The notes under the pieces are model-generated. The model did not search any database. It saw only the letters and a list, made by a program, of their open reading frames with translations, and was not told the DNA's origin. Shown here one piece after another: positions 17,929-38,417 of a stretch of DNA of 64,000 nucleotides; within the stretch, counting starts at the first letter, position 1, and every line of letters starts with the position of its first letter. The translations under genes and the position numbers were made by a program. This DNA is from a virus, in IMG/VR virus record IMGVR_UViG_3300045988_179014, positions 1-64,000 of that record; one strand, given 5' to 3'.

Positions 17929-18456
17929 ATGAACAACTTGTCAATTTATGAGCCTTTTGCTATCAGTGAAGGCAAAACAGTGTTGACAAAAGTGGTACCA
18001 AATGTTTTAACCGTTCTCGTGGCTCATCAAAGTTTCTGGGGTGGAACGTTGGAAATCCCGTCCTGTCCAGTCTTTCGTTGGGAATTCTGTCCAAATACAG
18101 AAACCTCCCAAGGTCGTTACTTTTTACGAATGATTTTAAATGAAACAATTTGGTTCAATACCCAAATCATTGATTACTCCATTAACACCATCAACGATTT
18201 TATCACACGATTCCTTGGGTGCTGGTTAACCCTTTCATGGACAGGGGGAGCCAATGAAATCACATGGCACGGATTGGTGAGGAGACGCGACAGTGTTCAT
18301 ACATCCGAAAAATCATGGGCACGACAAATCGGCGTATGTCTTGGTGGGAAACAAGTACGAGGGAAAATACGACCATCCAAGTTATGCACCCATTACTATC
18401 CATCCATTAATTTTGTGGAGCTAGTGGATTGGGATGTAGTTGCCAAATTGAAGTAG
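17929..18456 (+). CDS. Paralog family member 6
   Basis: C-terminus ...YYPSINFVELVDWDVVAKLK. Internal INDFITRFLGCWLTLSWTG. Confidence 0.6.
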   Translation: MNNLSIYEPFAISEGKTVLTKVVPNVLTVLVAHQSFWGGTLEIPSCPVFRWEFCPNTETSQGRYFLRMILNETIWFNTQIIDYSINTINDFITRFLGCWLTLSWTGGANEITWHGLVRRRDSVHTSEKSWARQIGVCLGGKQVRGKIRPSKLCTHYYPSINFVELVDWDVVAKLK

Positions 18457-18629: not shown

Positions 18630-19992
18630 ATACTCCTACACGAGAAAATAAATGGCTTTCACAAACAAATCTCTAAACCAGCAAAATAAATCCATGTAAC
18701 TGGGTTCTCACAAAATTTGTCGTCGTCCCCTTTTACAAGCCACACAACAAGACGGAACAAACACCAGCAAGACAGTATGACCGTTTGTTGATGTATTGAA
18801 CCAGAGCACAAACATTACGAACAATAATCATTTGACCAATACATGAAATCACTAGCAAATGACGACAAACTGTGTTGCCATGTAAGTGCAAAATGCTTCT
18901 GTCACCATCCATGCTGAAAACAGATGATTTAATCGTATTACACTTCCTGTCGTTTCAATACATTCTTAGTACATTGGACAAACTAGCCAAATATATGTAT
19001 GCCACAATCTTGGACGAAACCCAGTATAAGTAATTCACGCATATTGACAGGTTCATTGTTCAACAATCATGACACAAACATATCCCCAAAACACAGCCAA
19101 ATTACACAGTAATCAAATCAGCCATTCAACTGTCACCCCACTCCAGAGACAACAGATGAAACAGCAGCAAACAAAAAACATCATTGGTGGTAGCACTTTC
19201 AGTCCAGTTCATTGATTCACACTAAACACACCAAAAAATGTTTGTTCATGCTCAACTAACAACCGAATATACCATACACAAAAGGTGATGAGAAGAAATT
19301 CAAGGAATCAATCAAAACGGGCATGTTCACTTCGCCCATAACTCATGAACAACAACATCTGTAGTCTCACTAGACGCCCTCAATCGGCTGTAAATCCCCT
19401 TAACAACGCCAACAGCAAAGGGGTTTAAGGGTGTGGTCATCCCAAGCTCTCAGAAACCATTCTATGGCGAATCACAGCATACTCTGTCCAAACCAAGTCA
19501 AAAGTTAAGCAAACAAATAAACAAATTACAAAACCCAATCAAATCAGTCATCAACAGGAACAAACACAAGAACTGCCCCCACCGGTTATGTTCGATGTTG
19601 GAAATCACGAAATAGACCCAATTCGATTGCCAATACCCGGAAACAATCAAGCCCAAATAATTACAATAGCACCTCTACAAAGAAGTACCAGGAGAACCAA
19701 AACCAATCTTTTGAATCTCTTGACGGGAATCCAAACAAAAACCCTAATGAAGAACCCTATCTGAAAACCAATTAACCACTCTCAACTGTTTCCAGACTGA
19801 ACCATCACATTATGAGACCGGCCAAGAGAGCTAATACGCCAACCCAACCCGAAATCAAAGTGCCTCAATTCAAAATTCACACATGTCAGTCAATACAACA
19901 TCTCTTTCGTCGTCCCTAGGTAGGTTAAAATATCTTCTTCTTGAAACAACGAATACACAATTGATTACAGGAAGAACATTAATTGTACCTAT

Positions 19993-20070
19993 GTGGCTTA
20001 TTCATAACTCCCCCTCAAGTGTGTAGGTTGACTAGAAGCCGCTTGAAATGCCGCCTGTGAATAAGCCTCC
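19993..20070 (+). repeat. About 80-nt hairpin element, copy 2
   Basis: Stem ggcttattca (19995-20004) pairs with tgaataagcc (20058-20067). The loop carries ctcaagtg...gactag...gccgc...gccgcctgtgaataagcctc, as in copy 1. Confidence 0.5.
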
Positions 20071-23000
20071 ATGATTCGCTACATTGTTTTCCTTCCAGAT
20101 TCAAAACAAGAATTCAAACAAGTAACTATCGTCCCAACCAGTTCATTGGATTGTTGTTGTATTTACCTGTACTCCATTCATTGAAGACCTCAAATCTTGA
20201 CTCACCCAGTCTCCAAATCATGTGACAACATTTGTATCAGCTTTAGCATTACCCCCTTTAGTATTACCCATCCACTTATGTAGCGAAGGTAAATTCGGCA
20301 AATACAATAGGTAAAACCACAAGTTTTCTGCTACAAATGTCAACACAGTACTTGTAGCGAGAAAACAATGAGTTCATGATTAAGCAAGATTCTACCGCAC
20401 GTTTTTAGATAACAGGAGAATTGTTCACTTTTGTAGCGAAGAACCAATTGAAATAAGATAGAGGGGTATTTTGAAACGGGAATAAAGCCCATAACTCTAA
20501 CTCACTTCATTCAACCACAACACAAACTGAACAGGGGGTAAACCTCTCTTGAAACAAAAACCAAATCAGCATGTTACATGTAATGAGACCCTGAACCCAG
20601 ACATCTCTTACAACACCATAATAGTCAAATGTTCCAGTCCCATAAAAACATCAATCATCTCATTCATATATATTCTCAGCTTTTTGAGACTTTTTCAAAC
20701 TGCTCCACTCCACAGAAGCTCAACACACAAGCCATCAAGTTCTAAACACATGCTTTAACCCTGTTGTCAATCGTCGTCCCCAGTTGTTCGAAAACTATCA
20801 ATCATACACACTTGCCCCAAAGTCAAAACAGGCATCAAAAATACTGCAAATGCGCCCTCGTCAACATCCGCCAACCCAAACAATCAAAAACACAACCCAC
20901 TGCACCCCAATAAACCCCATCCATTCAAAACCAAACAACAATAAACAAAAATACAACATGACAGCAACTTCACTACTGTCACAGAACCAACTACTAATCA
21001 AACAACTTCTCTTGTCGTCACTTCATTCAACAACAAGCCCAAATTCGAATAAAGACATCAACGCAGCAGCCAAATTCAACCAACACGCTCGTCACAATTC
21101 CAAAAACCAAACAGTAACCATCTCTCCCACTGAATCCAACAACATGCTGACAATCAACAAGAAACACACTACTCCACGCACCTACCAAACTGCATTACCT
21201 GATTCAAACAGTATGTCATCATTGAAACACTCTTCCTCGTAACACAACCCCCTTCACACATCAAGCAAACACCATTTTTACAATTAAATGGGATTCAGCC
21301 GCCGTTCAACCAAAATCAATACATCAAATCAACATTCACCAACCAGCATGCAACATGTACAAAGCAAACACTCAAATCATTGTTGATGCTATTGACAAAA
21401 TCTAAGCAATGCAATTCAACGAAAACGATACAACAGCAATTGCAACACCCTCAACAACATGTAATACTCGCACACGCTTAGAGCAAAAACAAACAATTGG
21501 TACAGGACAAACAGACTTCTCGCTATGAAACAATCGAAACAGATTCCATCAACCTTGTAGAATTGCAGAACTCCTTCATTCAGGGAGGTGCAATCATGAG
21601 AACACCATCACAGTCCCCCCCCACCACCAAGACCGCAAATCAAGCAAAGATTCAGTACCAAACTGTATACAACCGCTCCTATCAATGCACTTCTGCACTA
21701 ATAAGCTCAGGAATCACTGTTGAACAAGTTGAATAGTATGGACACACCACTGGATTGTGTGCATTGTATTCAACAATTGGAACACTCGCCTACATTGATG
21801 AAATACAGCACACATCATATTATGAAAAAACACATTCCACAACACTTGATACATGACAAATAACACACACCTGAAAACAACAAGCAATCATCAACACTGT
21901 TCATACAGCGGTCACGCCATTGTTCACACTAGTCATTGAAAATCAAATTCAACAAAACGGCAAATCAACACCCCACTATCTCGCCAGTATTCATAACAGG
22001 TCAACAACTGTATCCAACCCATAAAGCAATGAAAACAAGCCCACTTCACCAAACATCAACTACCTGAACCTGCATCAGCGAGAAACAGTTCCATCAGTTT
22101 TGTCGTCCCCTCCCACTCCACAACCAATCCTACTTCATGATAAGCCAATAACGTTTATACATCCCCCATGAAACAAACACCAAAAACACACATACGGTTT
22201 CACATCACGTGTTTCAGAAAACCACAAAGATTCACCAACACACAAAACACCAACAGTTCAAGAAACCCCAACCTCGAATCCAGAACCCAGACAATCAAGA
22301 CTTGGATTCACAACATGCTCCCATATATACCTTGTATGGGGGTAAACTCAACCCTTCATCCAATACCCAAACCCATCCCGCCAGCAATTTAAAGCAACAA
22401 CAAAAACAAACTACACAAACAGACATCACAATGGGTATATGAACAAATTATGCTTTGATGAAAAGACATACTTGAACTGTATTCACAGTATCCAAAACAT
22501 TATTTCAGAATTGAACCATGTGAACAGTAGACAATACAAAACCACACTGACAAAAACTCCAACAAGTGCACAGTTCACATTCACGGTAATCGCGCCCAAC
22601 TGAAGAAACCAATAATCCAGCTTACACAGCAACTATAGACATTACCAGCCAAATCCAAAGCACCACAAAGATTCTATTGCTCAAGACATGCAAAAACAAA
22701 CCCAAGGAAATCAGCATCTACCCAAAGCACGCCCACTGTCAACACTTGCATGCACATCAAGACACAAACACCTGGAACCAATCAACAAAATCCCCAAGCA
22801 TCCAACTAGCCCCAAAACGATGCAACCTAATACAAACTTTTCATATTTCGTCGTCCCCGAGCAAGCAGTGAACACAAACCGCAATGAAACACCACATCTC
22901 AACAAACAAGGACGTAAAAACAAAAGAGGCAACAGTTGGCCACGAATCATTTGCGCTCATCAACAACACAAACAATCTATCATGGAATCAATACCAACTG

Positions 23001-26000
23001 TATCCATTCATGCCACCACATACTGACAATTTGAATCATGGTCAAACTACGTACTCTTTACACTCCACAATAATTCATTACCATGGCATGATTACAGCTC
23101 AATGGAAGCATCTTTCCCCAACTTGATTTGTTCACACTTGGTTCTGAATCATGAACTGTTGGTGAGTGTTCGTTTTTGTTTCACAGTTGTATGAAATGTT
23201 CGCAAGTTTGAGTGGGAGCAAGAAATACAGGGAAAGATTTGAAACATGGGGCCATTGTGCTCTGATGTGTGTTTTGTTGTTGTCAGTACTGAATGTCAAC
23301 ATGACCAAAGTTGTATGGTTGTGAGAATTCAATAACTGGTTTTGTGCATGTGCAGTAGAAGCTGCATGTTTTCGTGATTGTGTTTGCGGTTTTTGTATGC
23401 AATTGCCAATGAATGTAAGTGTAAAACATCAATCCTGTGGTCAATAGGGACAAATCATTTGCTGGAAAGTATCAAATGGTCATGAGTGCTTGCAGAATGA
23501 GCGTGTTTAGTGTGTGATGGCAGCATTTTTGTCAACAAGTGTATGTATTGATTTATTCTGATGGTTTATAGTTTTTGACAGGTTGGTGGGAAACTTTGGG
23601 AACAGAATGTTTTTCAAACCATGGTAATGCAGTGTAAACAAACCCACACTATAATCTAAGATTCACATCAACAGTTATCCGTCGTCCCCAGTACGGCTAC
23701 ACTTTTTGGCTATTGAAGACAGCATTTCAGTTTACAACGAAAGCAAACCAGTCAAACACATTGAAAAATCAAGAACCACAAAACCCAAACTCTTGCATCA
23801 AACACCTATAACAAATCACCAACATTCTGCCCTCACACATCCCAGCAATCAATACACCAACTCATGTATTGCGTGTTGCATCCAAAAACAAAACCAGAAA
23901 CAGCAACAAGAGAACTGTATCTCATTGTTGACATCACAGACTCAACAGGAGCACTATTTGTTACCCCCACTTTTCATACATCTGAACACGGCCCGAAATC
24001 ATAGCACTGTAATTCTCTCACACCCACCAATACCTCATTCTTACAGCACCACAACTCACACCCTGTTCTGGGCAAACACTCGTTGACCCTACACCCCCAA
24101 CCGTGCTACAAAACCCAAAATGTAAACAAAACCAGCAAAGAAACCCAATAAACCATCCCCAAAAAGAAACACTCTCAAAACCTCACCCAAACACGCAAAT
24201 ACACAAACACATGAAACACAACAACCCATACTCCCCAATAAGCAATCTCCGTAGAAACATACAAACCACTACCTATACCGAACCAAGCACATCTCAATCC
24301 AGACACAACACAACCAAATACTTCAATGAACCACAATTTCACAAACCATTCCCCCACAAACCGAATCGAGAAAAAACAATAAACAAGCAATCATATGAAC
24401 AGACTGATTAATACCAGGCAATGGACAACAAACGAAGACTGACAGCAATTCAAAATCTTCTATCGTCCCCCATTCAAACAGAAAATCTTCTCTACCACTG
24501 AAAACTATGTCCAATCATGTTTTTGAAACACCACAAAACCACGAACCGGACTCATACAGTTTCATCCAAGCCCCTTGAAGATGCATAACTCAAAGAAAGT
24601 GATAAACAACACATTGTGTTCATACACTGTCGTAATCGAACTTGTCACATAACACCAAAAGCACACGCGTTTTTTACAGAACCAACAATTTCAAACATAC
24701 TCCATCATATGTTTTCAATTTGGACAAGTAATCGCTGCTATGAAAAACATGTAATCAACCTTTAACACTTGAACCACATAACACGTAATTAGATTAACAG
24801 GGTTCAGCAAAATTCGCAGGTTCAACAGCCGCCAACCCCAGTTCACACAATGTTTCAATGATTCATCAACTATACATAAAGAAGATGTGCATATAACCAC
24901 ACAATACACAACGCCCATTTGCAATCACAATCATGGACACACTATGAACCGAACACACCTGACTACTGCACACACTTACTCTGTATCAACTCATGCCATG
25001 ACCATCACCACCAAAACCATGTGAATCATATATACGTTGACTGCAAACAAATCATTACCACAACATTTAACTTTGGTCACAACTTGATTAACGTCTTATC
25101 TCGCCCCAACTCACACCATTGCGACTTAAAACACTGACATCTCCCAACGTGCTGAGAATCCCACAAATGCACATAACATCAACCTGTAATGCCAACATGT
25201 GCAGATAGACAAACTCCCACCACCTACAAACATGCTCCTCAGAAAGAATGATTTGTCAACATCTGTGCACCATCAAAACCAAACATGTTCACCCAATCAA
25301 TTTCGTTTGTGACAGTTGACTTCCTCATAAACTTTAATACTCAAAATTCAAAGAAGATTTTTGCATCCCATTAGCACTAGACAAAACACTCTCATCAGTT
25401 TCATCATCACTCAGCAAACCACCCAACAAAACCGCAAAACCATCAACACCCACATCCCACACATAGTCCATTGACAATCAATAACATGAGCAGAAACCCA
25501 AAACCCAACTCAACCAATACCATCCCCCTCAAAACCGTCGTCGTCCCCAAGCAAAACAAACCAAACACCCAACCAGTAAGCTTTTCCAGACAGCAAAAAC
25601 ACAACCCACAACAATAACCAACATCAGAACCAAACCATTGAAACATGCTATACATCATTAGTTCATGTACATTCATAGTTTCCAACTACTTACAACAATC
25701 TTTGTCAACAGTCATAATCATGATGAGGGCAGCACATAGTCAACTAAATCTTTTCAAAAACAAGTTGATTCAAATTGATTACAAAACCCCATAATCTTTG
25801 GCGACCCCTCAAAACCAAAACCCAATACTACAAAACCCAGAAACAACAAAGTCAAAATATAGCAAATTCAACCGTTTACAAAGCAGGAGGGAATATTTTC
25901 AGCACAGACAAGACATTCAACAGGGTAACGTGTATTGTCAAGAGGCATATAGGTCGGGTTGTTGAAACTGTAGACGATGAATACAATATGCAAACATAGA

Positions 26001-26982
26001 ACATATAGGTTTTGCCGGTTTGTGCATGACCATTGAAAATTCACAGTGAGTTTGAAGATGTTGACATCTGGTTTCAGGTTTGTGGGCTCTGTAAAGGTTG
26101 AATGACTCATGGTTTTCATTACAAAGTCCACATATCTTTTTCATTGGTTGTGTTTTTGTGTGAAGCAAAGATTGGATGAACTTTGTTTGAGGAAAGATTA
26201 TTCAAACTGGTGAGACCGTGTTTGCTCGTTCAAACTGATAGAGTTATGTTTGTTCAATAAGTGATTTTTGCCATTTGAGATAGTTGATGTTCCTCAATTG
26301 CTGCGGTTGATGTTTGAGATACGGTTTCACTTCTATCATATTAGCGCTCATTGGGTGGTATCAAATTATCAAAACCCGATACGACAACACACAATTCTGT
26401 ACAACATGCAAACAGTCTCAACATTCACATCACACAAATCCACAAAACACACAAGCTTTCGTCGTCCCCATACTATAAAGACCACAAACAACTAACACTC
26501 CCATATGCATTTGAACCCACCCAACACAAGCGACCAAAAACACAAACAAACTCCACAAGAACAAAAACCAATTCTCTGACATCCCCAACCATGCTCTCAG
26601 TCACTTAGAACCAAGCACCCATGCTATTTGTCAACAAAGTAGTACCCAACAACACAAACAAAAATCACCATTCAACTCGAACCCCACACAGCATCTCCCC
26701 CCATCATGACCAAAACACAGTTCATACATACTCAACCAAACACAAAACAATGCCAAACCACACTCACACGTTTTTACAAAGTATTCCCACACACTAACCC
26801 ACAAACCAAAGAAACCAAACACTAATTCAACAACCAACACCATTAGAACCATAACAAGAAACAACAACCATTGAACACAAAAACCAACCCCACACCCAGT
26901 CACCAACCAAACACAGAAACAACAACAGAGTCATGTTTCCATATTTGTCAGCCATAAGTAAAAGACAGCAACCCAATGTATC

Positions 26983-27004
26983 CATGTTCATATGTCAACA
27001 CTGG
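26983..27004 (+). repeat. 22-mer catgttcatatgtcaacactgg (copy 1) followed by ttgttgtgtgaaat
   Basis: Exact repeat of the 22-mer at 29567-29588; the minus strand reads ccagTGTTGACAtatgaacatg (contains TTGACA). Confidence 0.45.
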
Positions 27005-29566
27005 TATTTGTTGTGTGAAATGCGTTCAACTCGCAACTTGACACGATTGAACACATGTACAGCAAAGCAGTGTTCATCAATAAGGTCAAAGTCTACCAAT
27101 GATAAGATTCCAGAACACTACATTGACCACCCAATTCCCAAACACTGTCTACATGTTGGTTGTATCCAGTACAATCCCTGATTAGCCTCAACAACATGTT
27201 TGCTTTCAGTTCAAGTATGATGCTCGCTTCTATCAGTAGGAAGATAAGACAACACTAACATCCCCATACATCACCCAACAGAAACACATTCAAACAAGAA
27301 AACCATAGACCCATTTCTGACAACACAATCAGCCACTCATTGGATGAAACTGCTCGTATCAGATTAAAGCGCATAGAGGTCACACTACTAACATTCACAG
27401 CCTCATCCATCACATTGACACATTCTCGCATCCAAAACAGCTGAAACACAAGAATACTATCCAATCACCAAACCCATAAAATGTTACAAAACCTCTCCAC
27501 AACGATTCACAAAAACATTCCCGTAGAAACCTTGTTCACATCAACACCAGAACAATAACAAACACCAATACAGAAGGATTGCAAAGAAAACACAAGAAAG
27601 CGACAAACCAACAAACATCCTCCCCATAACCATGTAACTGTTTCACACCATTATTTCACTTGCAGCCCAAATACCGACTGAACACAAATTTACACAGCTC
27701 AATTTCATCTACCGCCACTTTCACCAATTGGAAATCCAGCTCATCATAACCCATTCCCACCAACTACTTATCTCACTCATCATGTAACACCAGTTGACCT
27801 AATATATTCATTATGGCCCTACACAGTTCAAGGAATAATGTTTTCTGTTGTATGGGTGTTTAATAGTATTACGACTGTTGTCTTTCGTTCTTTTTGTTCA
27901 TTGGTTGCCTGAACAGTACAACTACTTGTCAACAATAGAACAAATGCTACAAAGGTTGAAAATCATAGATGTGTTATTTATAGGGGGCACATAGGTTTTC
28001 CTGTACTTGTTGAAAATATTTTCGTATGTTCTATGGTAGTAGTCATGGAACCTGGTTCATCAAGCGACAGGAACAAGGTATTGATTACATGTCCACACAA
28101 ACCATAATTTCACACAGACGGATAAACAAACAACAAAACAAATACACCCCTGTAACAAATCGTTGTCAGAAGCCATGGCAGTTATCAACAACCCATACTA
28201 AAACAGTAAACAGAGACAACCTTCATTGCACAGAATATTACAGTTGGCAACGTTTTGAATCCACATCACCATGCACTACTCTCTTTGCATGTTTTGAAAT
28301 CAACCAGCAATCTGAACAAACACAGAATCACCATACTGGCACACATTGATGAAAGAGTATCAACTGAGCCAAAAACATTACCTCACAACCATCAACCGTT
28401 TTCCATCTATTGACAGAATCCCAACCACTCAAAATTCTTCAACACCACAATTGCCCACGACATTGACAGTAGTAGACATCAACCAACAATAAACAGCGGT
28501 ACTCAACAATCAATCACATACAACACAAACACGAAACGAATTCATATCCTTCAAATATGCCTCAACCAGACTCTTCCACAATAGTTGGGAAACTAACTGT
28601 TACACATTATGTCATCATGCTGTAGTTCTCTCACCAGTTTGTTTTTCACATCCCTGTTTGGCATCCTATTCAAAAATACATTCAAGGTTAAACTCTGCAA
28701 CAACAATGTATTACAAGAGAGACATCCGTTTTATTACCCGTTTACTCATCCATGTGAAATTGTGTTTTTGTTAACATTTAGTCAGTACCATGTTCGTGTT
28801 GTTTGGCGGACTAGGTTTGGTAATTACTGTCGTAAGATGTGCAAAGATGTTTTCAGCCAATGTCGGAAACTCATTCAACCCACTATGAATAAACACCTGC
28901 GATTTTGAATTTTTGAGCCCCTGTTCTACCGTCGACGAGTTACCGTACTTTTTGGGTAATCAATGAATGAAAACGAAAGAAGAGGCAACAGTTGCAATGC
29001 TGTAAATCACTGAGATAGCGGAAAACATTTATTTGTCAAACTCCATAGACCCCCAATGGGAATGGTCACTCAGTATTACATGATGAAGAATTGACGGAAT
29101 AGACTATGATGACAAGTTTGACTGTTAATAAGCGAAAACAGCAACAGAGACAACCAAACCCGTATTAATTGGTATCCATCCAGTACTTGAAACACAAGCA
29201 AAGTAAAGACGCAAAACAACCACAGGAAGAACATTCATTGATTCTTTGCTATCCTGTGTTTCTCTGCAATCTCCTGCACCAATTTTTTACTGTTGCGATG
29301 CTGATGCAAACAGAACTCTACAAAGATGGCTCATAAATTGTTGTGAGAAAAGGTTACAACATTTCATGGGCTCAAACGATTGATGTTACACTCTCATGTT
29401 TTCAGCTGCTTCTGATGCAAAAATATACCAATGCGGCAAATGAAACACCGAAAGCAAACGACGCAACCACCACTCACCTTAATCCAATACAAACAGTTTC
29501 CTCCAACAGGCTACTTGATTATGTTGTCAGAAACAGGTCACAGTCTTCCTGTTCAAATACTGTGTT

Positions 29567-29588
29567 CATGTTCATATGTCAACACTGG
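29567..29588 (+). repeat. 22-mer catgttcatatgtcaacactgg (copy 2) followed by gttgttgtgtaata
   Basis: Exact match to 26983-27004. Confidence 0.45.
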
Positions 29589-30354
29589 GGGCGGCAGTCG
29601 GGCTGGTTTATAATCTTGAGTGGGTTGTTGTGTAATAGAGTTGTTGAGTGTAATCAGAGGTGTTGAATGCAGTTGTTATATTTCCGGGTTTGTTTTCATT
29701 GTGTAAAAACTGTAATCTGATGTGTTCATGCCGATGGATGACTAGAACACTGTATTACCAAAATCATCTTTCCCAATGAAGATTGAACAAAAACACAGTG
29801 AACAACTGACTATCATGTTTGGGCCGTTTAATTATGTATAGCGCAGCAGTTTTCGTTGACAGTGTTCATTATCAGAAATGAACCGCCACAATGCCACATT
29901 GACCATCCAGCACCAAAACACTATTAACACGACATCATCACCTCTGTGCCTGGTTCGCATGCAATCACGATGAACACATTACTGTTATGTTTGAGAACCG
30001 GTAATTATGCATGCTTGATGATTGAACACCAGAATCAACTGTGTTCATTCTTGTATTCGTGGTATCAATAATGTTTCAAGCCAGAATTCATTCATGTAAA
30101 CAATGAGCATATACACCAACTGGGGAAACAACACGCAAGCCACGAACAAAACCAAAAACACAAAATTACCAACCCAACCTCTCTTGACAACACAATGGAA
30201 ACAACAATCAACAAATAAACACAACTGAAAACATTGAACAAAAAAGAAAAAGAGGGACCAAACACACATCCGCACAATTCAACCCCACTCAACAACTCGT
30301 TCCCCACAACTCACACCCCAACCACCTGCCAACACTTCCCCCACCTTCCACCAT

Positions 30355-30393
30355 TTGTAAACACTTGCCCCCATTGTAAACACTTGTAAACAA
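30355..30393 (+). repeat. 3x direct repeat TTGTAAACA(CTTG) at the compositional-polarity switch point
   Basis: ttgtaaacacttg at 30355-30367 and 30374-30386, and ttgtaaaca at 30385-30393. + strand A/C-rich polarity ends and G/T-rich polarity begins at about 30400-30420. Confidence 0.6.
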
Positions 30394-30704
30394 TACTCGC
30401 ACAGCTCGTTCACTGTTTGTTCCAATCATCGGTGGCTGTTTTTACTGCTGCCGTTTTGTGCTTCTTCTGTCTTCGGGCTTGACCCCATCGTTTCGCTCCC
30501 GCCTTCTTCTCTCCCTACGGTCGGTCATCGGCGTCCGCTTCACTGTGGTTCCTGCACCCAACTTTGTTGCTTTCATTGGTTGCTGTTGTTGGCTGCTTGT
30601 GTTGATTGTTTTCAATTGTGTTGGTGCTGTGTGTTGTTGTATTGGTTTTTACTGCTTGGTTGTGTGTTGTTCTTGTTTTGTACATATGTTTGTTGTGTTG
30701 TTCT

Positions 30705-31036
30705 GCGCACACTTGTTTTCGTTTGTTGTTTGGTTGTTGGGTGGTTTTTCTTTCCTTTGTCGCTCTCTTCTATACTGTGTAGCGCACACTTCTGTTTCCC
30801 CATGTTTCATTTCTTCTATCATGTGTATTGTTGTTTGCTTGTTTCCATTTGTTGTCAATCATGTGCGCATACTTCTTTTCATCATATTGTGTTGGCTATT
30901 ATGTGTAGTATTGGTTGTGGCGATTGGATTGTTTTTGTTCATCATCACTACTGTTGACATTCTGTTTCCGTTTGTGTGTTGTGTACATGTGTTGGCGGTT
31001 GTTTTCGTCCTGCTTCCATGGTGGTGCGCACACTTT
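30705..31036 (+). repeat. Four phased iteron-like repeats GCGCA(C/T)ACTT (core palindrome GTGCGCAC)
   Basis: gcgcacacttg at 30705, gcgcacacttc at 30782, gcgcatacttc at 30865 and gcgcacacttt at 31026. Spacing is 77, 83 and 161 bp (about 80-bp phasing). Confidence 0.55.
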
Positions 31037-31164
31037 CTTGTATTCATTTTTGTGTTGGTGTGGCAGGTTTGTTGTGGAATCAGTTTGGGTGCTTTTGTTT
31101 TCATTTTGGTTGCTCGGGTCGGATTCCGCGGCTTCGGTTTTTGCGGCGATTTCCGTGGTAGCGT

Positions 31165-31310
31165 ATTCTTGAGATAATTTACATATGAACTATTTTCACA
31201 GATATAAAATGTGATTTCTTCAAAATTTGATATTTTTTTGTAACCATTTTGGGGCATTTTTATGTGTGTATTTTAGTACACTTGATTGCATTTTTGAGCA
31301 TTTTGTGTGC
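31165..31310. promoter_or_regulatory. AT-rich tract (candidate DNA-unwinding element / promoter region) upstream of the rep-relaxation gene
   Basis: gagataatttacatatgaactattttcacagatataaaatgtgatttcttcaaaatttgatatttttttgtaaccattttgg... Locally much more AT-rich than the flanks. TTGACA at 31326-31331 and GGAGG RBS at 31343-31347 precede the GTG start at 31357. Confidence 0.4.
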
Positions 31311-31356
31311 TTTTGTGTACATGTGTTGACAGTGTTTGTGCTTGTGAGGAGTTATT

Positions 31357-33357
31357 GTGGAGTTCAAACGATTGGATTTCGGGGTTGGGTCGGTTTCTGG
31401 GACTGATGGGACCGAGAATACGGTTGATGCATATGTTGACAATGTGTCTGAAGATGATGCGCACATGTCTGATTCGGCGGATTCTGCTGTTTTGCCTCAT
31501 TTTCGTCGTTTGGTTTTACCAGGTATGGGGGATTCCAACGGTTCTAATGATTCCAATAATTCTGAGGATGGTTCTGTTGTGAATGATTGTTCTGTGAATG
31601 GTTCATTTGCTGCTGAGTTGGTGGATGAAGATTTTGGCAGTGATTCTTCTGATGCTTCTAATGTTGATGGGGTTGGACATGATTCGTTGGTGAGTGATTC
31701 TGGAAACAGTGTTAACAGTGGTGTTTATGTTAATACTGGTTTGGGTGATGGTGCTGCAAATGTGGTTGGCGGTTCGTTTTCTGAGGTTGGGGGTGTTTCT
31801 TCGGGCGAGGTTTTACACAGTGTGGACAATGTTGTGGATAAGTCTGTGGATAATGTGGTGACGGGTTCGTTGGGGTCTTGTGCTGGTTCTGGTGTGCGGG
31901 ATTCTTTGTTGGGGGATGATGTTTCTGTGACATGTCAGACTTCAGGTGCCGTCATGAGGGGTGAAGAAAATGCTGTGGGTTCGGTGGTGGATTCAGGACA
32001 TGATGCTTCTTTTGGGATATCTTCTGCTGTTGAGAATACCTACGATGATGTCAATGATGGGGATGTGGGCGTTGATGGTTTTGGGGTTTTGTTGGGTGGT
32101 TTGTTGAGTGATGACGAAACTGATGAGAGTGTTTCGGTTGTTGTTGATGGTGCTGGGCGGGAGCGTGTTGGTGAGGGTGCTCCGGGGGTTGGGGTGCACC
32201 GGAATGAGTCTGTTGGCGGACGTGAGAAGACTGAGGTTGTTCGTGGTGCGGTGAGGATGAATGTGCGGGAGTTGGGGTTTTTCCGTAATTTGTCTTCAAC
32301 CAAGAGTGGTGTTTTGAATGATGAGTCGTTGGTTCGTGCGTTACGTGGACCGGTTTCGGGTAAGGAATCTGCTGGGGAACGTCGTGAGCGTTTGCGTTTG
32401 CACGGTCAAGGGTTGCGGGGTCGGCGAGTGTTTGAGCGGGGGTCTCGGTTGAGGTTCAGTGGACGTGACCGTGAGGTGTTGCGGTTTCTGGCAATGTTCC
32501 GGTATGCAACGGATTCTCAGTTGTCTCGTATGTTCTCTGTTGTTCCTCGTACCATGCTGAACCGTTTACTGAAGCTGCGGAAACAGGGTTTGGTTATTGA
32601 CCGTAAAATGTATGGTGCTCGTCCTATTTGGTTTTTGACTGAGGCTGGGTTGTTGTTGTCTGGTTTGGATTTGCCTCGGGTGACTGAATCCAAGTTGACT
32701 TTTTCCATGTTTCCACATCAGTTCACTGTTAATCATGTGGCTGCTAATTTGTGGGGGGCGAATGTGAACGTGTTGGGGTTGAAGGATTTTCCGGCAAAGA
32801 ATCGGGTTGATGGTCAGGGTGTTGTAACGTTTGGCGAGGAGCTTGTTTCAGAGTTGGAGATTCAGTCTTCATTCGGAAAGATTAAAATGTTCGACAAAGC
32901 TGAGGTGTATCGCCCTGGTTTGTTGAAGTCTATTGCGAATGAGTTTCAGGTGTGGGAGGAGTCTGGTGGGGTTTCGTTTGGGCCTTCTCCGGAAATGGTT
33001 TTGGGTAATGAGTACATGTGGGCTTTGATGCCTCCTACTATTGTCGGGTTGGCATATCATGTGCCGGATTTGGTTGTGAAACGTGAACGTGCTGCTGATG
33101 GGTCGCCTCGTAGTATTGCTGTTGAAGTGGAAATCAACAACAAACCTACACACAATTATGAGAAAACTTTGCGTGCTTATCGTGATGATATGAGATTGTA
33201 TGAGAAGGTTGTGTGGGTGTGTAAAAACATTGGTCCTGCTCGGAAACTTGAAAACATTGCCAAGGAGATTGGTTTGTGGCAGGAGGGGCGGATTGAGATT
33301 TTGCCTATTGTTACTGCGGATGGTGTTTTCAAGGAGAGGGATTTGTGGACAATTTGA
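31357..33357 (+). CDS. Replication-relaxation family protein (putative replication initiator / relaxase accessory) with about 330-aa acidic disordered N-terminal extension
   Basis: The C-terminal half starts with the wHTH pattern typical of the Replic_Relax (PF13814) family: VLRFLAMFRYATDSQLSRMFSVVPRTMLNRLLKLRKQGLVIDR, followed by FPHQFTVNHVAANLW. The N-terminal 330 aa are Asp/Ser/Val/Gly-rich low complexity, yet the frame stays open despite a stop-prone composition. GTG start with GGAGG RBS. Confidence 0.55.
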   Translation: MEFKRLDFGVGSVSGTDGTENTVDAYVDNVSEDDAHMSDSADSAVLPHFRRLVLPGMGDSNGSNDSNNSEDGSVVNDCSVNGSFAAELVDEDFGSDSSDASNVDGVGHDSLVSDSGNSVNSGVYVNTGLGDGAANVVGGSFSEVGGVSSGEVLHSVDNVVDKSVDNVVTGSLGSCAGSGVRDSLLGDDVSVTCQTSGAVMRGEENAVGSVVDSGHDASFGISSAVENTYDDVNDGDVGVDGFGVLLGGLLSDDETDESVSVVVDGAGRERVGEGAPGVGVHRNESVGGREKTEVVRGAVRMNVRELGFFRNLSSTKSGVLNDESLVRALRGPVSGKESAGERRERLRLHGQGLRGRRVFERGSRLRFSGRDREVLRFLAMFRYATDSQLSRMFSVVPRTMLNRLLKLRKQGLVIDRKMYGARPIWFLTEAGLLLSGLDLPRVTESKLTFSMFPHQFTVNHVAANLWGANVNVLGLKDFPAKNRVDGQGVVTFGEELVSELEIQSSFGKIKMFDKAEVYRPGLLKSIANEFQVWEESGGVSFGPSPEMVLGNEYMWALMPPTIVGLAYHVPDLVVKRERAADGSPRSIAVEVEINNKPTHNYEKTLRAYRDDMRLYEKVVWVCKNIGPARKLENIAKEIGLWQEGRIEILPIVTADGVFKERDLWTI

Positions 33358-33389
33358 GCAAGTTTTCAAAGAGTTGGAGGATGTTGTCC

Positions 33390-35072
33390 ATGTTGGGTTC
33401 TGATGTGAGTAATCCTTTGTTGGATGATGAGGATGAAGTTTATCCAGTTGTTGAAAATCCTGTTGTTGAGCGGTCTGGAATGTCACAGCGGGGTTCATCA
33501 ACTCGTGGTGGGGAATCCATTGTTGAGGAGCATTTACCAAAAGAGGATTCGTTTTTTGGTTATGGGGCTTTTTCTGGTTCGGGTGTTTCCTCTGCTGTAA
33601 TTGATGCGAATGATAACACGTTTGATGATGTGGCACGTTTTGAACAGGATTTTCCGGATGGCCATGGGAACTGGGTGGAATCTGTTCATAGGATGGATAA
33701 ATCTTTTGATGATGTGTCTGATACTGTTGTAGCGGGATTTGATTCTTCTTCTACTGACGATTTCGTTGACAGTGTTGGTGTTTCTGATGGGTTGTCAAGC
33801 GATGATGCTGAACCATTGTCTTTTGGTGGGGATTCGTTGGAGGATTTGTTGGGTCCGGTTGATGGGTCTGATGATGTTGCTGCGTCGGAGGATTTGTATG
33901 ACAGTATGGATTCCATTTTAGCGGCTGCTGATGGGGCTTTGAATGAGGATGATTCCAGTTATTATGCTGTGACTGATGATGACGATGAGTTGGGTGGCTT
34001 GTCATTGGATGCAATTATTGGTCAGGCGATTGAGATGGAGGCGTCGGATATTCATCTTTCATCGGACGACATGGTTGCGTTCACTATTCTGGGGGAGATT
34101 CATCGGATACCGGATTGGGGGGTTTTGAATTCGGTTCAGGTTCAGCGAATTTATACGTCTATTGCATCGCACGTTTCTCAGGACGATTTTGCGAAAGATT
34201 TGGAGTTGGATACGTCATATGTTGTGAAGACTGGTAGGCATCGTGGGCGTCGTTTGCGTTTGTCGGTTGGTAGGTCTTTTCACAATGTTTTCATGGTTTT
34301 TCGTGTGATTGCTGATGTGATTCCGACGCCTCAGGAGTTGGGTGTTTCTGGGAGTTTGTTGGAGTGGTGTAATTTGCCTAATGGTTTGGTGATGATGAAT
34401 GGTCCGACTGGTACGGGTAAATCAACTACTTTGGCTTCGTTGTTGCGGCAGATTCAGTTGACTCGTCCTGCGAAGATTATCACGATTGAGAAACCTATTG
34501 AGTTTGTGTATGGCACTGATGGTAAGGCGTTGGTGACTCAGCGTGAGGTTGGTGGTCGTGATACTCGAACTTTTGCTGGGGCTTTGACTTCTGCGATGCG
34601 TCAGGCTCCGGATATCATCATGTTGGGTGAGGTTCGAAATCAGGTTGAGGTGAATGAGCTGTTGCGTGCTGCTGAGACTGGGCATTTGGCGATTTCCACG
34701 ATGCACACAAATTCGGCTCCTGCTACTGTGAACCGTATCAAGGGTTTGTATCAGGGGGATGACCAGATTCGTATTTTGGGGTCTTTGTCTGAGGTGGTTC
34801 GTGGTTTTGCGAATCAGGTTTTGTTGAAGACTCCTGATGGTAGTGGCAGGTTTGCGGTGCGCGAGGTCTTGGACGTTGATGAAACTGTGTCGCGTATGAT
34901 TCTGCGTGGGGATGTCGAGGGTATCAAAAACTATCAAATGTCCAATGGTATCACGATGGAACATGAGTTGGTGAAAGTTGTGTTGGATGGTCGTGCGAAT
35001 CGTGAGGAAGCCCGTAGAGCAACTTCGAATGTGGCTCGTTTTGACCATTTGTTGAAACAAGCTATGCAGTGA
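33390..35072 (+). CDS. PilT/PilB-family (type II/IV secretion) ATPase with about 230-aa acidic N-terminal extension
   Basis: Walker A GPTGTGKSTT, Asp box ITIEKPIEFVY...TQREVG, Walker B DIIMLGEVR, His box HLAISTMHTNSA. T2SSE N-domain-like segment EASDIHLSSDDMVAFTILGEIHRIP. The ORF track starts at GTG 33345 (overlapping the upstream stop); ATG 33390 has GGAGG 9 nt upstream. Confidence 0.7.
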   Translation: MLGSDVSNPLLDDEDEVYPVVENPVVERSGMSQRGSSTRGGESIVEEHLPKEDSFFGYGAFSGSGVSSAVIDANDNTFDDVARFEQDFPDGHGNWVESVHRMDKSFDDVSDTVVAGFDSSSTDDFVDSVGVSDGLSSDDAEPLSFGGDSLEDLLGPVDGSDDVAASEDLYDSMDSILAAADGALNEDDSSYYAVTDDDDELGGLSLDAIIGQAIEMEASDIHLSSDDMVAFTILGEIHRIPDWGVLNSVQVQRIYTSIASHVSQDDFAKDLELDTSYVVKTGRHRGRRLRLSVGRSFHNVFMVFRVIADVIPTPQELGVSGSLLEWCNLPNGLVMMNGPTGTGKSTTLASLLRQIQLTRPAKIITIEKPIEFVYGTDGKALVTQREVGGRDTRTFAGALTSAMRQAPDIIMLGEVRNQVEVNELLRAAETGHLAISTMHTNSAPATVNRIKGLYQGDDQIRILGSLSEVVRGFANQVLLKTPDGSGRFAVREVLDVDETVSRMILRGDVEGIKNYQMSNGITMEHELVKVVLDGRANREEARRATSNVARFDHLLKQAMQ

Positions 35073-36043
35073 TTCCATGTGTATAGCAATGTTGGCAATG
35101 ATGACTGTATGTTGACTTTGAGTACTGTTTGCAAATAATACGGCTTGGGTTAGTAATGCTTTAGGCGCAATAATTCTGGTGGATGAATGTCAACATTTTT
35201 CAACGAATGTTTCAATGTGGTTATGTTAATGGTTGTGGACAGATAGACATAATGGCTCTTCGTGAATTGAACAATTTTAAGTCATGTGCGGGTTGTCATA
35301 TTTTAAAACATGAAAATGGTTCCCAGCTTCAACCACGGAACCACGGAAACATGAACCAACAAACGTCACACTGCTCATCAATGAAAACATATTCCCAAAC
35401 AACAATCTGTTTATTGCATGTTCTTCTACTATGTGTTGTAACAATGTTTACACTAAACCCCACAATAATCACAAAACATGGATTGATACCTTATGTAGTT
35501 GGCCGGAGGGTCCCAGTTGTCAGTCAATAATAGACGTGATGGCTATATTCAGAGTGATTACAATTTAGCTCAGTTCTCATCTACACCGTTTTGAAGAATA
35601 GCTGTAAGTTTATATAATTCCAGTATGAAAGCGGCCAAACTGTAACAGCTCTACGGTCATTGTTGTATAACTCGTTTTTGGAGCACATCTGGACATCAAT
35701 GTTTCCTGTTGTTTTCAACTTTGTTTCAATCATGTGGATTCAGTTACGAGAATATGGTTCGGTGTTTTCATGTAGTCACTAATTCGTGCTTCTGTTTTTC
35801 ATTGTGTGTTGCGTATCGTATAAGGTTTATTACTATGGTTGTCTTCTGTTTTGTTGTAAGCAGGTTGTATGAAAATGTTGGGAGAATCGTTTGTGCAGGA
35901 CAGATTGGTTGCGAATTGACAATATTGGGGTTTTGCTTGTTTGGTTGATGGTGCTGGTATTGCGAAGTTCAGTTCATGGGTCTTGTTGAGTATGTTTGTG
36001 AGAAGAATTGGGACTTGTGGTTTTGTTGCGCTTCTTTGATGGG

Positions 36044-36080
36044 TTGTTGAATTCTAGTTGTTGAATTCTAGTTGTTGATT
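36044..36080 (+). repeat. Tandem repeat (ttgttgaattctag)x2.6
   Basis: 36044-36057 and 36058-36071 are identical 14-mers; a partial third copy ends at 36080. Inside the ORF-poor stretch 35.1-38.4 kb. Confidence 0.6.
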
Positions 36081-36374
36081 TTTGGCGTTCTGATTTTATG
36101 GTTCTGTTGACAAGTATGTTGGTGGATATGTATGGAATTCAGGTTGGTGGTATGGTTTATCAGGTTCTATGTATCCAAATATGATTGATTGCCTCAAACG
36201 GGCGATGAGACTGGTTTGTAGTAATGCAGTTCCTCCCCCCCCCTGTCACAGAAGCAGACATCTATATCCTATACAGTGGCGGGTTGACCTTTCATGGGTT
36301 TGTTCCTCTAGCACATAAGTCCGGATTCAACGAATACAGCTGGAATCAGGGCTTGTATGTGTTTTGGCTCAGAA

Positions 36375-36620
36375 TTATGTGGAGGAGGAAGACGGTAAGG
36401 TGTCAATTAAGTAGCCCAGAGAACTCAATGTGTCCATCAAGTGCGCGAGGATTTCTTTGAATCTGCTTTTGGTGGCTTCAACATTGGAAGCAGTGACTTC
36501 AATTCCAAAATCTCTCATGAAGTTGACCAAATACTCATCTTCATAATCGGATTGTCGTAGCATCCACCATACTGCTTCTCGTGATGCTTTATCAATCATT
36601 CTTGCTTGCTCTTCTGTCAT
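36375..36620 (-). CDS. Small hypothetical protein (81 aa)
   Basis: Isolated ORF in the otherwise ORF-poor G/T-rich stretch. Confidence 0.3.
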   Translation of the reverse strand: MTEEQARMIDKASREAVWWMLRQSDYEDEYLVNFMRDFGIEVTASNVEATKSRFKEILAHLMDTLSSLGYLIDTLPSSSST

Positions 36621-38349
36621 GTTCTTTCTCTATATTGTTGGTTTGCTTGGTGTTAAATTCAGTATACAGCATGGTCTGTTTGGGGCTGTTCATATGGTTG
36701 GGAACTGATGGTTGAGAATGTAGTCTGTGTGACAAGGAGTTTTGAAAACAAATGTTGACATAATCAATTGAATCAGTCACCGGTCATCATGTATCAAACA
36801 GTTTAGTTCGGGTTCGTATTGGTCAGCTGAAGGAAGTAACATGTATCCAAATTGTCGTTCAACAGATGAATGAAGCAACAGGTGGTTTTACAGAACCAAT
36901 AACTTTTGAACATCACGAAAGGTCAATACAACGATTTATTGCAACCATGTCTAAATGTTTTCACTATAGACAGATGTTAATGGTTTCGCTTTGTCAATTC
37001 ATTATAGTTGGGTAGCGTGATTTTGGCAGAACGTATTACTGGCGTTTTAACCATCAGTAGGGCAATGATTGTTGACTTTTGGGGATACATGATTTTGCAT
37101 CATTCTTCCATACAATAGAGTTTGTTGTGTTAATTGGTATGAAGTCTCTAACATTGTGGGGCCCTATTTAAAGGAAACAATGGTGTTTTGTTCTATAAAC
37201 ACGGTTAGCTCTGTTATCCAACATGATGAAAATATGAAAACACTCTTCGGGTCATAGATGCTAGTAACACAAGGTTCAATGTTTCTGTCATCTGCAACAA
37301 CCAGTTCACGCTTCATCCATTGTATTCAATTTAATCAAACTCAATCAGTGAAGCACTTGTTTCATGATGTAATCATGTTTGAATATACAAAGAAGCATAA
37401 TCGTGAAGGGATGGCGTTCTTCCCCCATTTGCAAAAATAATGTACGCTATGAGACGGTCGATTCCGAAGAATACAACAGTAACATTGTTCATGATGCAAC
37501 ATTGAACCATGTGAAAGTAGCGTCTTCAGATGATGTATTTCGTTCAGGGTGAATTCATATCAAGGATTGGGGTTTCAATCTTCTCAAATAGTAATGCTGT
37601 CTGGTTAGCTTAATATGACCAGCCCATAATGTTTTCGTCAGTGTTCACTCTTGCGTTAACAGATTCTTGACAAGTTGAATACATTCGGTACTGGTTGTTT
37701 TTCCTCTTGGTTCTTGATTGTTCACTGTTCATTGACTTTGTTTGGAGCGATTGGGGCTGAAACCGTGTATGCTCAAGATAAGGTTTTTGGTGTTCATGTG
37801 TTTGAGATTCTGTTGTGCTTTTGAGTTGTTAAGGTTTGAAGATGTCATCGGATTACATTGCTTATACTGGTTGATAGATTGTTTGCAATGTTTTCTGTGT
37901 TGGTTTGTATTGTTGTGTTATTGGGCTATGTTGGTCGTATCAGTGATTATCTGCATAGGATGTCATGATTGAATGAGCATGGGGTGTTGTGGGAATACAT
38001 GATTGTGTTCTTTTGGAAGTAAGCGATTATGACTACTATGAGCTGTTTTCCCTGATTGCTTTTGGAGTCTGGAATCGCTTCCTGTAACGTCCCTAAAAAA
38101 CCTTGGTGGCATCAAGCATAAATAGGTACATAATGCCGTAATTGATTAAAATTTGTTTCAAAATGCTTACTGTGAACAAGGACATTGCAAATTGAGCTGA
38201 AAAGGCTTCTTGTTACGTTTGTTCATGTTGTTTGGTGTTTACAGATTATGTTTACAAATTTGCGGGTTGATAGATTTTTGTTGACATTGTTTTGATTCTA
38301 CAATGTGTATGAGCAATGATTAACCAATTTTCCCAGTGATGTTTCGTAT

Positions 38350-38394
38350 GGAATAGAATAATCCCCACCTCAATTTGGCATCTTGGGTGGGGAT
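38350..38394 (-). terminator. Putative terminator hairpin downstream of ligA
   Basis: atccccacc (38361-38369) pairs with ggtggggat (38386-38394) around a 16-nt loop. The minus strand continues TTATTCTATTCC, 24 nt after the ligA stop. Confidence 0.4.
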
Positions 38395-38417
38395 TGTATT
38401 ACTGTGGGGTCTTGAAC

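Follow-up and report, generated by a model that had tools for sequence, protein, structure and literature searches.

A candidate oriT-type origin upstream of an InoC-like gene, at a strand-composition switch in a giant Inocle-like element

Introduction

Inocles are plasmid-like elements of giant size from the human mouth, 245-395 kb in length, which are defined by a single conserved gene, InoC, whose product carries a PF13814 domain (PMC12340149). InoC is the sole universal marker of these elements, which are found in ~74% of people; ~95% of their genes are without function, and their replication and spread are not known (PMC12340149). Iterons, an origin of transfer (oriT), an initiator and DnaA receive no mention in the main text of that description (PMC12340149). 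The PF13814 (Replic_Relax) domain has been placed in the PD-(D/E)XK superfamily, where it is usually fused to a helix-turn-helix (HTH) domain (PMC3424549), and it is a domain of the MOB_C relaxases (PMC5357655, PMC12857230). The MOB_C relaxase TraX is reported to bind five direct repeats of oriT, 70-120 bp from nic, via its N-terminal winged helix (PMC12857230). Here, we describe a locus in the first 64,000 nucleotides (nt) of the IMG/VR virus record IMGVR_UViG_3300045988_179014 (hereafter the window), which represent 64 kb of a ~345-kb element. The locus consists of a conserved 1-kb module (30.35-31.36 kb), situated where the base composition of the strands is abruptly exchanged, and of the gene directly downstream, which encodes an InoC-like protein of 666 amino acids (aa).

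Plasmid origin and transfer modules are known, and the present one is a variant of them in an unusual setting, namely an extreme local skew and an adjacent, fast-evolving 11-kb non-coding desert, both retained over a large uncultured family. The reading that we favour, and to which we assign about an even chance, is that the module is an oriT-type DNA-processing origin, an array of relaxase-binding sites within a giant conjugative element of Inocle-like type; this region is probably where DNA transfer and/or replication begins. The initial annotation of this DNA had recognized the layout of an origin of vegetative replication (oriV). The repeats, the AT-rich tract and the skew of that layout stand, together with a trio of DnaA boxes, whereas no Rep initiator was found and the boxes resemble the relaxase-binding repeats of a pAD1-type oriT. 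In what follows, related loci, designated L001 onwards, were taken with 10-kb flanks, and the three strains are the window and its close strains L002 and L003.

A conserved box array upstream of the InoC-like gene

The decamer GCGCAYACTT occurs four times in the 64 kb, always on the + strand, at 30705, 30782, 30865 and 31026 (30705-31035), with 0.10 copies expected by chance and none of 100 shuffles reaching four; the four repeats noted in the initial annotation are fully borne out. They form the cores of longer boxes, 320-650 nt upstream of the start codon of the 666-aa protein, with the consensus (T)GTG(T/N)GCGCA(C/T)ACTT, a palindromic core GTGCGCAC and a conserved unit of ~13-15 nt (short form GTGYGCGCACAC, also written GTGTAGCGCACACTT). 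The proposed iteron-like phasing of ~80 bp does not hold. Spacings of 77, 83 and 161 nt in the window compare with 149, 40, 46 and 57 nt in L001 and 81, 129, 67 and 65 nt in L006, and, because they differ between relatives, the boxes are not phased like classical iterons.

The array is retained well beyond the three strains. The 15-mer CTGTGTAGCGCACAC of box 2 (30775-30789) is found in L001 too, and both L001/L005 (64-74% protein identity) and L006 (51%) carry the box motif as four to five same-strand copies at the composition flip, in the form (A/T)GT(G/A)T(N)(G/C)CGCACAC(C/T)(C/T); one L006 box is a perfect palindrome, GTGTGCGCACAC. Loss of the repeats from relatives that keep the gene, raised at the outset as a sign against an origin, is not what is seen down to this level of identity. 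At the equivalent place, L007 has ~10 copies of TGTTATCT with a period of ~10 nt, and L019 (25% GC) has at least 12 copies of TGTATCATTACA. The arrays vary with the clade of the neighbouring protein, as expected of a cognate protein-site pair.

Comparison of close strains supports the view that the module is a real cis-acting region under constraint. Against L003, the module (30400-31356) is 96.4% identical and the neighbouring genes are 97.6-98.3% identical, compared with 91.3% for the 19-30.4 kb block. The module differs from the close strains by one to three indels, all of a single nucleotide (three against L003); the block to its left has 103 indels against L003 and more than 100 for each close strain, 15-18% of them multiples of three.

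Further repeats and tracts accompany the boxes (Table 1). The triple TTGTAAACA repeat at the switch is present as annotated, with just two further copies elsewhere in the window; L002 and L003 have two exact copies and one variant, with a 10-nt deletion, and the repeat was not found in more distant relatives. The last copy of the TTGTGTACATGTGTTG family lies 44 nt upstream of the start codon. The AT-rich tract is likewise as first described; of all 146-nt stretches in the window it has the lowest GC content (a fraction of 0.0003 have as little or less), 95-96% of its columns are invariant over the three strains and AT-rich tracts stand at the equivalent place in L001 and L006. The DnaA trio, which holds the only two perfect TTATCCACA copies of the window, lies in a conserved island (97% of columns invariant) within the variable N-terminal coding region of the 666-aa protein, and the same trio is found in L006 in non-coding DNA between the boxes and the AT-rich tract. 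It is suggestive of origin function. The trio was not found in L001, L005, L007, L008 or L021-23, and these clades rule out DnaA boxes as a family-wide feature.

Scans of the module for sigma-70 promoters and terminators gave no excess over shuffles, and single-stranded DNA hairpins local to it were not significant. A structured leader or primer RNA in the 766-nt G/T-rich segment 30400-31165 was rejected, its fold having z = -0.03 against shuffles. Between the boxes and the AT-rich tract of L005 (8085-8310, equivalent to ~9470-9690 of L001) there is a 226-nt cluster of long hairpins, whose single-stranded DNA fold is -68.1 kcal/mol (z = -9.3). This cluster, which has no Rfam match in L005/L001, may represent the inverted repeat of an oriT, a site of single-strand initiation or a structured RNA.

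Table 1. Features of the locus and third-codon composition along the window (GC3 skew, GC skew calculated from third codon positions and given for the + strand; ORF, open reading frame)
Feature	Position	Strand	Remarks
GC3 skew, all genes	1-18.5 kb		-0.07 to -0.35; two + strand genes -0.10 and -0.11
A/C-rich gene desert of ~11 kb, left arm of the switch	19000..30350		no long ORF
Three TTGTAAACA direct repeats	30355..30392	+	within 38 nt, exactly at the A-to-T flip
Polarity switch zone	30395..30600		A/T flip ~30400, G/C flip ~30600, C/T-rich segment between
TTGTGTACATGTGTTG repeat family, three copies (30676, 30979, 31313)	30676..31333	+	may be promoter/operator
Box 1, ttctGCGCACACTTgt	30699..30716	+	same in the three strains
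Box 2, tgtgtaGCGCACACTTct	30776..30793	+	same in the three strains
Box 3, tcatgtGCGCATACTTct	30859..30876	+	same in the three strains
Box 4, ggtggtGCGCACACTTtc	31020..31037	+	same in the three strains
AT-rich tract, 26.0% GC	31165..31310		candidate unwinding element and/or operon promoter
Shine-Dalgarno sequence GAGGAG	31346..31351	+	5 nt upstream of GTG
InoC-like/TraX-like protein, 666 aa	31357..33357	+	GTG start
DnaA-box matches TTGTCCACA, TTATCCACA, TTATCCACA	31821..31853	-	12 nt apart; inside the N-terminal coding region
GC3 skew, two + strand genes	31-35 kb		+0.55 to +0.68
PilT/VirB11-type hexameric ATPase (T2SSE)	33345..35072	+	co-operonic with the gene of the 666-aa protein
GC3 skew, minus-strand ligA, tadZ-like and cpaB-like genes	38-43 kb		+0.45, +0.37 and +0.34
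GC3 skew, minus-strand genes	44-57 kb		about +0.1
GC3 skew, minus-strand genes	after 58 kb		-0.2 to -0.3

The adjacent protein resembles the relaxase TraX

The 666-aa protein is composed of three parts; a variable, low-complexity N-terminus (to ~32208), a winged helix (~32458-32745) and a PD-(D/E)XK nuclease (~32690-33354). Judging by the reading frame, the low-complexity N-terminal third is translated, since all of its indels relative to L002 are multiples of three and the start codon is preceded by a GAGGAG ribosome-binding site. The gene pair formed with the PilT/VirB11-type ATPase is kept in all clades.

The gene had first been taken for a rep gene, with a search against PF13814 suggested as a check. 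In Pfam, the full-length protein has no significant match, and its C-terminal 318 residues match PF13814 below threshold (E 0.0032; 18.0 bits against a cut-off of 25.3), over the HTH part only; seven of 16 homologues match this family at E <= 1. The NCBIfam model MobC_subf ("MobC family replication-relaxation protein") matches residues 368-463 with E 6.4e-6, far below its cut-off, whilst no Rep family was matched in Pfam, NCBIfam or PHROGs. A sequence search against solved structures returned weak MarR-type HTH matches only. In AlphaFold2 models (predicted local distance difference test scores of 88.6 and 89.1), the winged helix appears MarR-like and joined to a PD-(D/E)XK nuclease. The residues H284, P286, D287, E306, E308, K312 and Y317 (numbering of a 382-aa construct) are invariant in 70 homologues.

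A clearer relationship emerges from the enterococcal plasmids. The "replication-relaxation family protein" of pTEF1, a plasmid typed as MOBC, is a pAD1-type TraX homologue, and this single sequence matches the InoC-like profile with E 0.0025. When a 29-member TraX-family profile is used, hhalign gives a probability of 80.1% (E 1.4e-5) over 184 columns that span the winged helix and the catalytic motifs; the TraX-family invariant residues D152, E170, E172, K176 and Y181 align with the InoC-like motifs (H, D, ExE, K and Y of both families). This profile-profile match, with its aligned invariant residues, points to a divergent, enlarged homologue of the MOB_C relaxase TraX and not to a Rep-family initiator, contrary to the first assignment.

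A local switch in strand composition

On the + strand, the 1-kb profile over 19-29 kb gives a GC skew of -0.22 to -0.48 and an AT skew of +0.11 to +0.38, compared with +0.41 and -0.38, respectively, at 31-32 kb. The A content falls from 29-52% to 7-9% between the 100-nt bins 30301-30400 and 30401-30500. A flip at ~30,400, completed within ~20 bp, had been reported from the sequence; the A/T change does lie at ~30400, but the change from C to G follows ~200 nt later, near 30600. The same order of A/C, C/T and G/T richness is found in L001, L006 and L021. Keto-skew contrast is maximal at ~30420 and the cumulative GC skew of the window has a local minimum at 30-31 kb. The A/C-richness, said to be held over the previous 12 kb, does mark 19-29 kb, but it is broken at 23-24 kb and 29-30 kb. 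These skew breaks inside the desert, at 23000-24000 and 28500-30050, have a GC skew near 0 and may be inserted or functional elements; near one of them lies an imperfect 330-nt inverted repeat of 67% identity (27837-28166 / 28700-29029).

Third codon positions separate this asymmetry from the effects of gene orientation (Table 1). The + strand is G-rich at these positions from 30.4 to ~57 kb and the sign reverses past 58 kb, in agreement with the earlier remark that non-coding DNA at 57.4-58.1 kb is A/C-rich again. Because third-codon skew has the same sign for genes on either strand, the polarity switch is not a gene-orientation effect, and the suggestion of a replication-type skew is upheld to this extent. 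The intergenic region 57423-58088 is a second, reverse polarity switch, at which GC3 skew goes from ~+0.1 to -0.2 to -0.3. It includes the second lowest-GC stretch of the window (57.7-57.93 kb), a terminator-like hairpin on the + strand (57537-57590) and a copy of TTGTGTACA, whose only other two copies are both in the module.

The switch is a property of the family. Eleven further loci (L001-L008 and L021-L023; 36-55% GC) have a sharp keto-skew flip upstream of their homologous gene, at a distance of ~7 kb in L021 and L023, and the orientation-independent GC3 pattern recurs in L001, L005-L008, L021 and L023. In relatives, GC3 skew reaches +0.9 and the AT skew at third codon positions falls to -0.9; the G/T-rich arm of L021-23 reaches a GC skew of +0.7 and an AT skew of -0.9. 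The most extreme strand asymmetry in the family is that of L021 (2300-4700) and L023 (2860-5300), where nearly pure G/T coding-like DNA (AT skew -0.9, GC skew +0.7) with Gly/Val/Trp/Phe-rich low-complexity ORFs of ~760 aa directly follows a stretch of A and C only.

The skew decays with distance from the switch, in relatives as in the window, falling in L006 from +0.92 to +0.30 over 13 kb independently of gene orientation. In L001, L007 and L008, GC3 skew has returned to ~-0.05 to -0.37 just 10-13 kb from the flip, so that the proposed leading-strand skew of an origin is not supported at the scale of a replichore; this limited range favours a local process over a simple replichore boundary. 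The skew has origin polarity, with the G/T-rich strand pointing away from the module on both sides, which implies that single-stranded DNA has been repeatedly exposed and that the exposed strands are opposite on the left and on the right. Transitions in the desert, polarized among the three strains, have a matching bias. Per base on the + strand, G>A stands at 0.14 against 0.09 for C>T, and T>C at 0.09-0.11 against 0.06 for A>G; for the G/T-rich strand this amounts to a surplus of C>T and A>G, the deamination signature of exposed single-stranded DNA. We know of no plasmid with such a local, orientation-independent and decaying asymmetry together with a gene desert.

The non-coding desert

The 11-kb block to the left of the switch is truly non-coding and fast-evolving. 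It has no long ORF under the standard code, and an alternative code was rejected as TGA, TAG or TAA, reassigned singly, yields no coherent long ORFs. Hidden genes or pseudogenes were also rejected, in that tblastx against L001 found no conserved protein segments and the indel lengths are of non-coding type; tblastn of two neighbouring proteins against the desert returned a single 30-aa fragment. No known RNA was detected by Rfam in 18.5-31.5 kb (E <= 0.1) or in seven related loci. A comparable desert of 5-9 kb or more lies beside the locus in L001, L002/L003, L007 and L008. The desert also contains one copy (25384-25458, minus strand) of a 75-nt inverted repeat, the other copy of which (32060-32134, + strand), 6.6 kb away and 94.7% identical, codes for DVGVDGFGVLLGGLLSDDETDESV within the N-terminal part of the InoC-like ORF. 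The pair is kept in L003 and could be a duplication relic or an inversion substrate for the module-bearing segment.

Comparison with known systems

The closest match is to the oriT2 and TraX of the Enterococcus faecalis plasmids pAD1 and pTEF1. In both cases an N-terminal winged helix is combined with a PD-(D/E)XK catalytic domain, about five direct repeats with the common core GCA(C/T)AC(C/T) lie upstream of the relaxase gene (PMC12857230), and the whole is tied to a TcpE/VirB4-type Gram-positive transfer system. Upstream of traX, pTEF1 has a perfect inverted repeat of ~140 bp beside five to six direct repeats, TTAGGCA(C/T)AC(C/T)T, with a 12-bp period; their core is also contained in GCGCA(C/T)ACTT of the window and in GCGCACACC of L001 and L006. 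The InoC-type box, GTGTGC|GCACAC, can be read as a pair of TraX-type half-sites in inverted orientation, an arrangement that would suit a dimeric winged-helix protein. The hairpin cluster that follows the boxes in L001/L005 parallels the repeats-plus-inverted-repeat layout of pTEF1, whereas the module of the window is without such a structure and without a large inverted repeat. Unlike TraX, the protein described here is 666 aa long; its variable, low-complexity N-terminus takes up ~285 aa, and ~80 aa are inserted into the nuclease domain. Neither a gene desert nor an extreme AT tract accompanies the oriT of pTEF1.

A second point of comparison is provided by strand-displacement genomes, such as vertebrate mitochondrial DNA and the linear genomes of adenovirus and phi29 type, with which the window has in common a keto (G+T) excess on the strand that would be displaced, an asymmetry that is strongest near the start and then decays, and C>T and A>G deamination-type transitions on that strand. 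The asymmetry of the window differs in having two sides, which flank a point in the interior of a large and presumably circular replicon, and no strand-displacement machinery was identified. The locus is also unlike a bacterial oriC, given that the window has neither dnaA nor dnaN, its DnaA-box matches lie inside an ORF and no relative was found in the GTDB species genomes.

Proposed mechanism

Under the oriT-type reading, the four same-strand boxes are predicted to be binding sites of the protein encoded directly downstream. By analogy with the oriT of pAD1, the protein, once bound, would introduce a nick into one strand close by, and the nicked DNA would be passed to the Tcp/VirB4-type transfer apparatus, the genes of which lie 8-30 kb to the right. 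The asymmetry would be explained most simply if DNA synthesis, vegetative or nick-primed, started at the module and ran both ways; a role in replication is plausible, whether it is played by the same protein or by host factors at the AT-rich tract. Binding, nicking, transfer and any replication function are what we infer from the repeats, their conservation, the protein homology and the geometry of the skew.

A number of observations weigh against this proposal. The evidence is wholly computational, and the transfer of a single T-strand cannot alone give opposite polarity on two sides. No inverted repeat of at least 16 nt, no significant local fold and no nic site were detectable in 30250-31420. 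The score of the window protein against PF13814 is below threshold, no match at E < 0.01 was obtained for other clades, and the profile-profile probability is 80% and not above 95%. The boxes exceed the pTEF1 repeats in length, are in part palindromic and stand 77-161 nt apart, whereas those of pTEF1 are contiguous with a 12-bp period; the core common to both was noticed post hoc, and its chance probability, estimated by us and not computed, is ~0.003-0.01. Lastly, pTEF1 has no skew flip at traX/oriT, from which it follows that an oriT alone does not explain the asymmetry and that a second process must be assumed.

Two candidates for this process were discarded. Exposure of a single T-strand in conjugation, as the sole source of skew, gives no sign reversal at the nick and is contradicted by pTEF1. 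A double-strand break followed by 5'-3' resection at the palindromic boxes would, by reasoning, expose the strands opposite to those observed. It has also to be considered that the module is a new type of replication start, at which a relaxase-type PD-(D/E)XK nickase acts on the palindromic boxes and primes divergent strand-displacement synthesis of limited range. We regard this as unlikely. If it were true, opposite strands would be repeatedly exposed for 10-25 kb on each side, which would account for the decaying keto skew, the deamination-type asymmetry and the fast-evolving desert of 9-11 kb across the family.

Alternative explanations

Three rival explanations are possible; in decreasing likelihood, these are an iteron/Rep oriV, an operator or promoter with transcription-driven skew and a rearrangement boundary. 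The first of these, a possible if rather unlikely one, is a classical iteron-type oriV, in which the boxes are iterons, the downstream protein is a Rep initiator, and DnaA and the AT-rich tract open the DNA for bidirectional replication. As in the iteron plasmid origins of RK2, pSC101, R6K and P1, and in the strand-displacement origin of RSF1010, direct repeats adjoin the gene of their presumed binding protein and are accompanied by an AT-rich element, in part by DnaA boxes, and by a skew with origin polarity. The orientation-independent switch is kept beside the gene over the family, the AT-richest 146 nt of the window lie near the boxes, and DnaA trios are present in the window group and in L006, the latter in the classical order of boxes, DnaA boxes and AT tract. 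No other Rep-like gene was found in the 64 kb, and the universality of InoC as the single Inocle marker (PMC12340149) would also suit an initiator. However, the protein is a TraX/MOB_C-type winged-helix nuclease and not an initiator of the Rep_3, RepA, pi or TrfA type, and the boxes, at 13-15 nt, are shorter than phased iterons of 17-22 bp, in part palindromic and without regular spacing. The family as a whole does not keep DnaA boxes, which are missing from L001/L005, L007, L008 and L021-23, and the trio of the window is inside an ORF, 1.4 kb from the switch. Moreover, the positive skew gives way to negative values at ~57.5 kb in the window and, in the relatives L001, L007 and L008, at 10-13 kb from the switch, and all genes at 38-64 kb would be head-on to the fork.

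It is distinctly unlikely that the module is a divergent promoter/operator only. The boxes would then be autoregulatory operators of the MarR-like repressor domain, and the skew would result from mutation that accompanies transcription, on the non-template strands of two strong units that diverge here, one giving a long non-coding RNA leftward and the other being the rightward operon with read-through. Winged-helix proteins of MarR type typically have palindromic operators, upstream of their own genes, as binding sites, the position of the last TTGTGTACATGTGTTG copy before the start codon would be in keeping with this, and a G/T-rich sense strand fits the two + strand genes. There is no intrinsic terminator-like site in 34.9-38.5 kb, so read-through of transcription is possible. 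Against this, the right-hand minus-strand genes keep a G-rich + strand at third positions, opposite to the effect of their own transcription, and the nuclease active site is intact and invariant in the 70 homologues. The lack of any promoter-like excess and of structure beyond shuffles in the 766-nt G/T-rich segment also speaks against this explanation, and the size of the skew (GC3 up to 0.9) is far above known transcription-coupled asymmetries.

Finally, a rearrangement boundary or host feature, with 30.4-57.5 kb as an inverted or integrated segment (an integrative and conjugative element or plasmid in a chromosome) or with a host oriC, as the initial annotation had allowed, is highly improbable, in that the reverse polarity switch at ~57.5 kb and the housekeeping-type genes gyrA, ligA, radA, recX and nadE would fit, but the switch stands beside the same gene in 11 other loci of differing clades and GC contents, the window has no dnaA, dnaN or ribosomal genes, the family was not found in the GTDB species genomes and occurs on IMG/VR contigs and recurrent 337-347 kb oral contigs, and the skew decays smoothly from the switch with no step block.

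The element and its other features

The window is best explained as part of a giant uncultured extrachromosomal element that has the oral Inocles as relatives. All homologues found for the 666-aa protein are from metagenomes. Near-identical copies are encoded on 337-347 kb contigs from several assemblies, one of them a human oral metagenome, and more distant relatives on contigs of 0.4-0.8 Mb; IMG/VR holds 20 loci with relatives, on contigs of 35-440 kb. At E <= 1e-3 the family amounts to 765 protein clusters (50% identity), with contigs that reach 0.8 Mb. No relatives, and hence no host, emerged when 185,579 GTDB species genomes were scanned twice by pattern, and 72,556 plasmids searched by DNA and protein gave no matches.

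In common with the Inocles (Kiguchi et al. 2025, PMC12340149), the element has a human oral origin, contigs of relatives (~345 kb) that fall inside the 245-395 kb range, one conserved gene with a replication-relaxation-type domain, VirB4-type transfer genes and a candidate origin derived from GC skew. The mean GC content of the window is 41.7%, whereas that of Inocles is ~32% (alpha, beta and gamma) or 24% (delta); with this difference from the 24-32% of the described taxa, the element is at most a relative of them. The protein, likened here to InoC by the published description of the latter, is longer than InoC and has the domain in its C-terminal half, and its identity to low-GC IMG/VR loci, which may be Inocles, is just 30-31%.

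The gene content of the window is that of a plasmid-like element, although many of its ORFs have no family assignment. Genes of DNA metabolism comprise nadE, ligA, radA, gyrA and recX, together with those of a Cas4-like nuclease and of an FtsK-like ATPase. There is also a Tad/type-IV-pilus-like set (TadZ-like, CpaB-like, T2SSE and two T2SSF), and the Gram-positive-type transfer genes encode a VirB4/TcpF-like AAA_10 protein, TcpE, an FtsK/TcpA-like ATPase and T2SSE/T2SSF proteins. The 64 kb yielded no dnaA, dnaN, Rep or ParB gene and none of ribosomal type. There are two phage-type matches in this otherwise plasmid-like element, a RIIB-like lysis inhibitor (6424-7482, minus strand; PHROG 609, E 6.7e-48) and a RusA-like resolvase (45173-45790, minus strand).

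Further features were observed outside the locus. A full-length GOLLD RNA (RF02032, 175.9 bits) lies at 10907-11273 on the minus strand, flanked by four transfer RNA (tRNA)-like genes (10792-11919, minus strand); ARAGORN calls two of these (Leu-taa and Leu-caa) and Rfam adds the other two, one of which is 105 nt long. Five small paralogous ORFs of 143-222 aa, on both strands of 14658-18456, have a common C-terminal PSINFVELVDW motif and belong to no Pfam family. A second ORF-poor zone of 3.3 kb (35100-38400), with a GC skew of +0.16 to +0.20, separates the convergent ATPase and ligA genes, and neither of its strands has a terminator-like site.

Implications

The comparison gives the hallmark gene of this family, of InoC type, a testable function as a TraX-like MOB_C relaxase or nickase, and it defines the likely site of action, with a specific box sequence. 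It also indicates that the family reaches well beyond the described low-GC Inocles. If the asymmetry reflects the start of DNA synthesis, it would provide a sequence signature by which such origins may be found in metagenomes.

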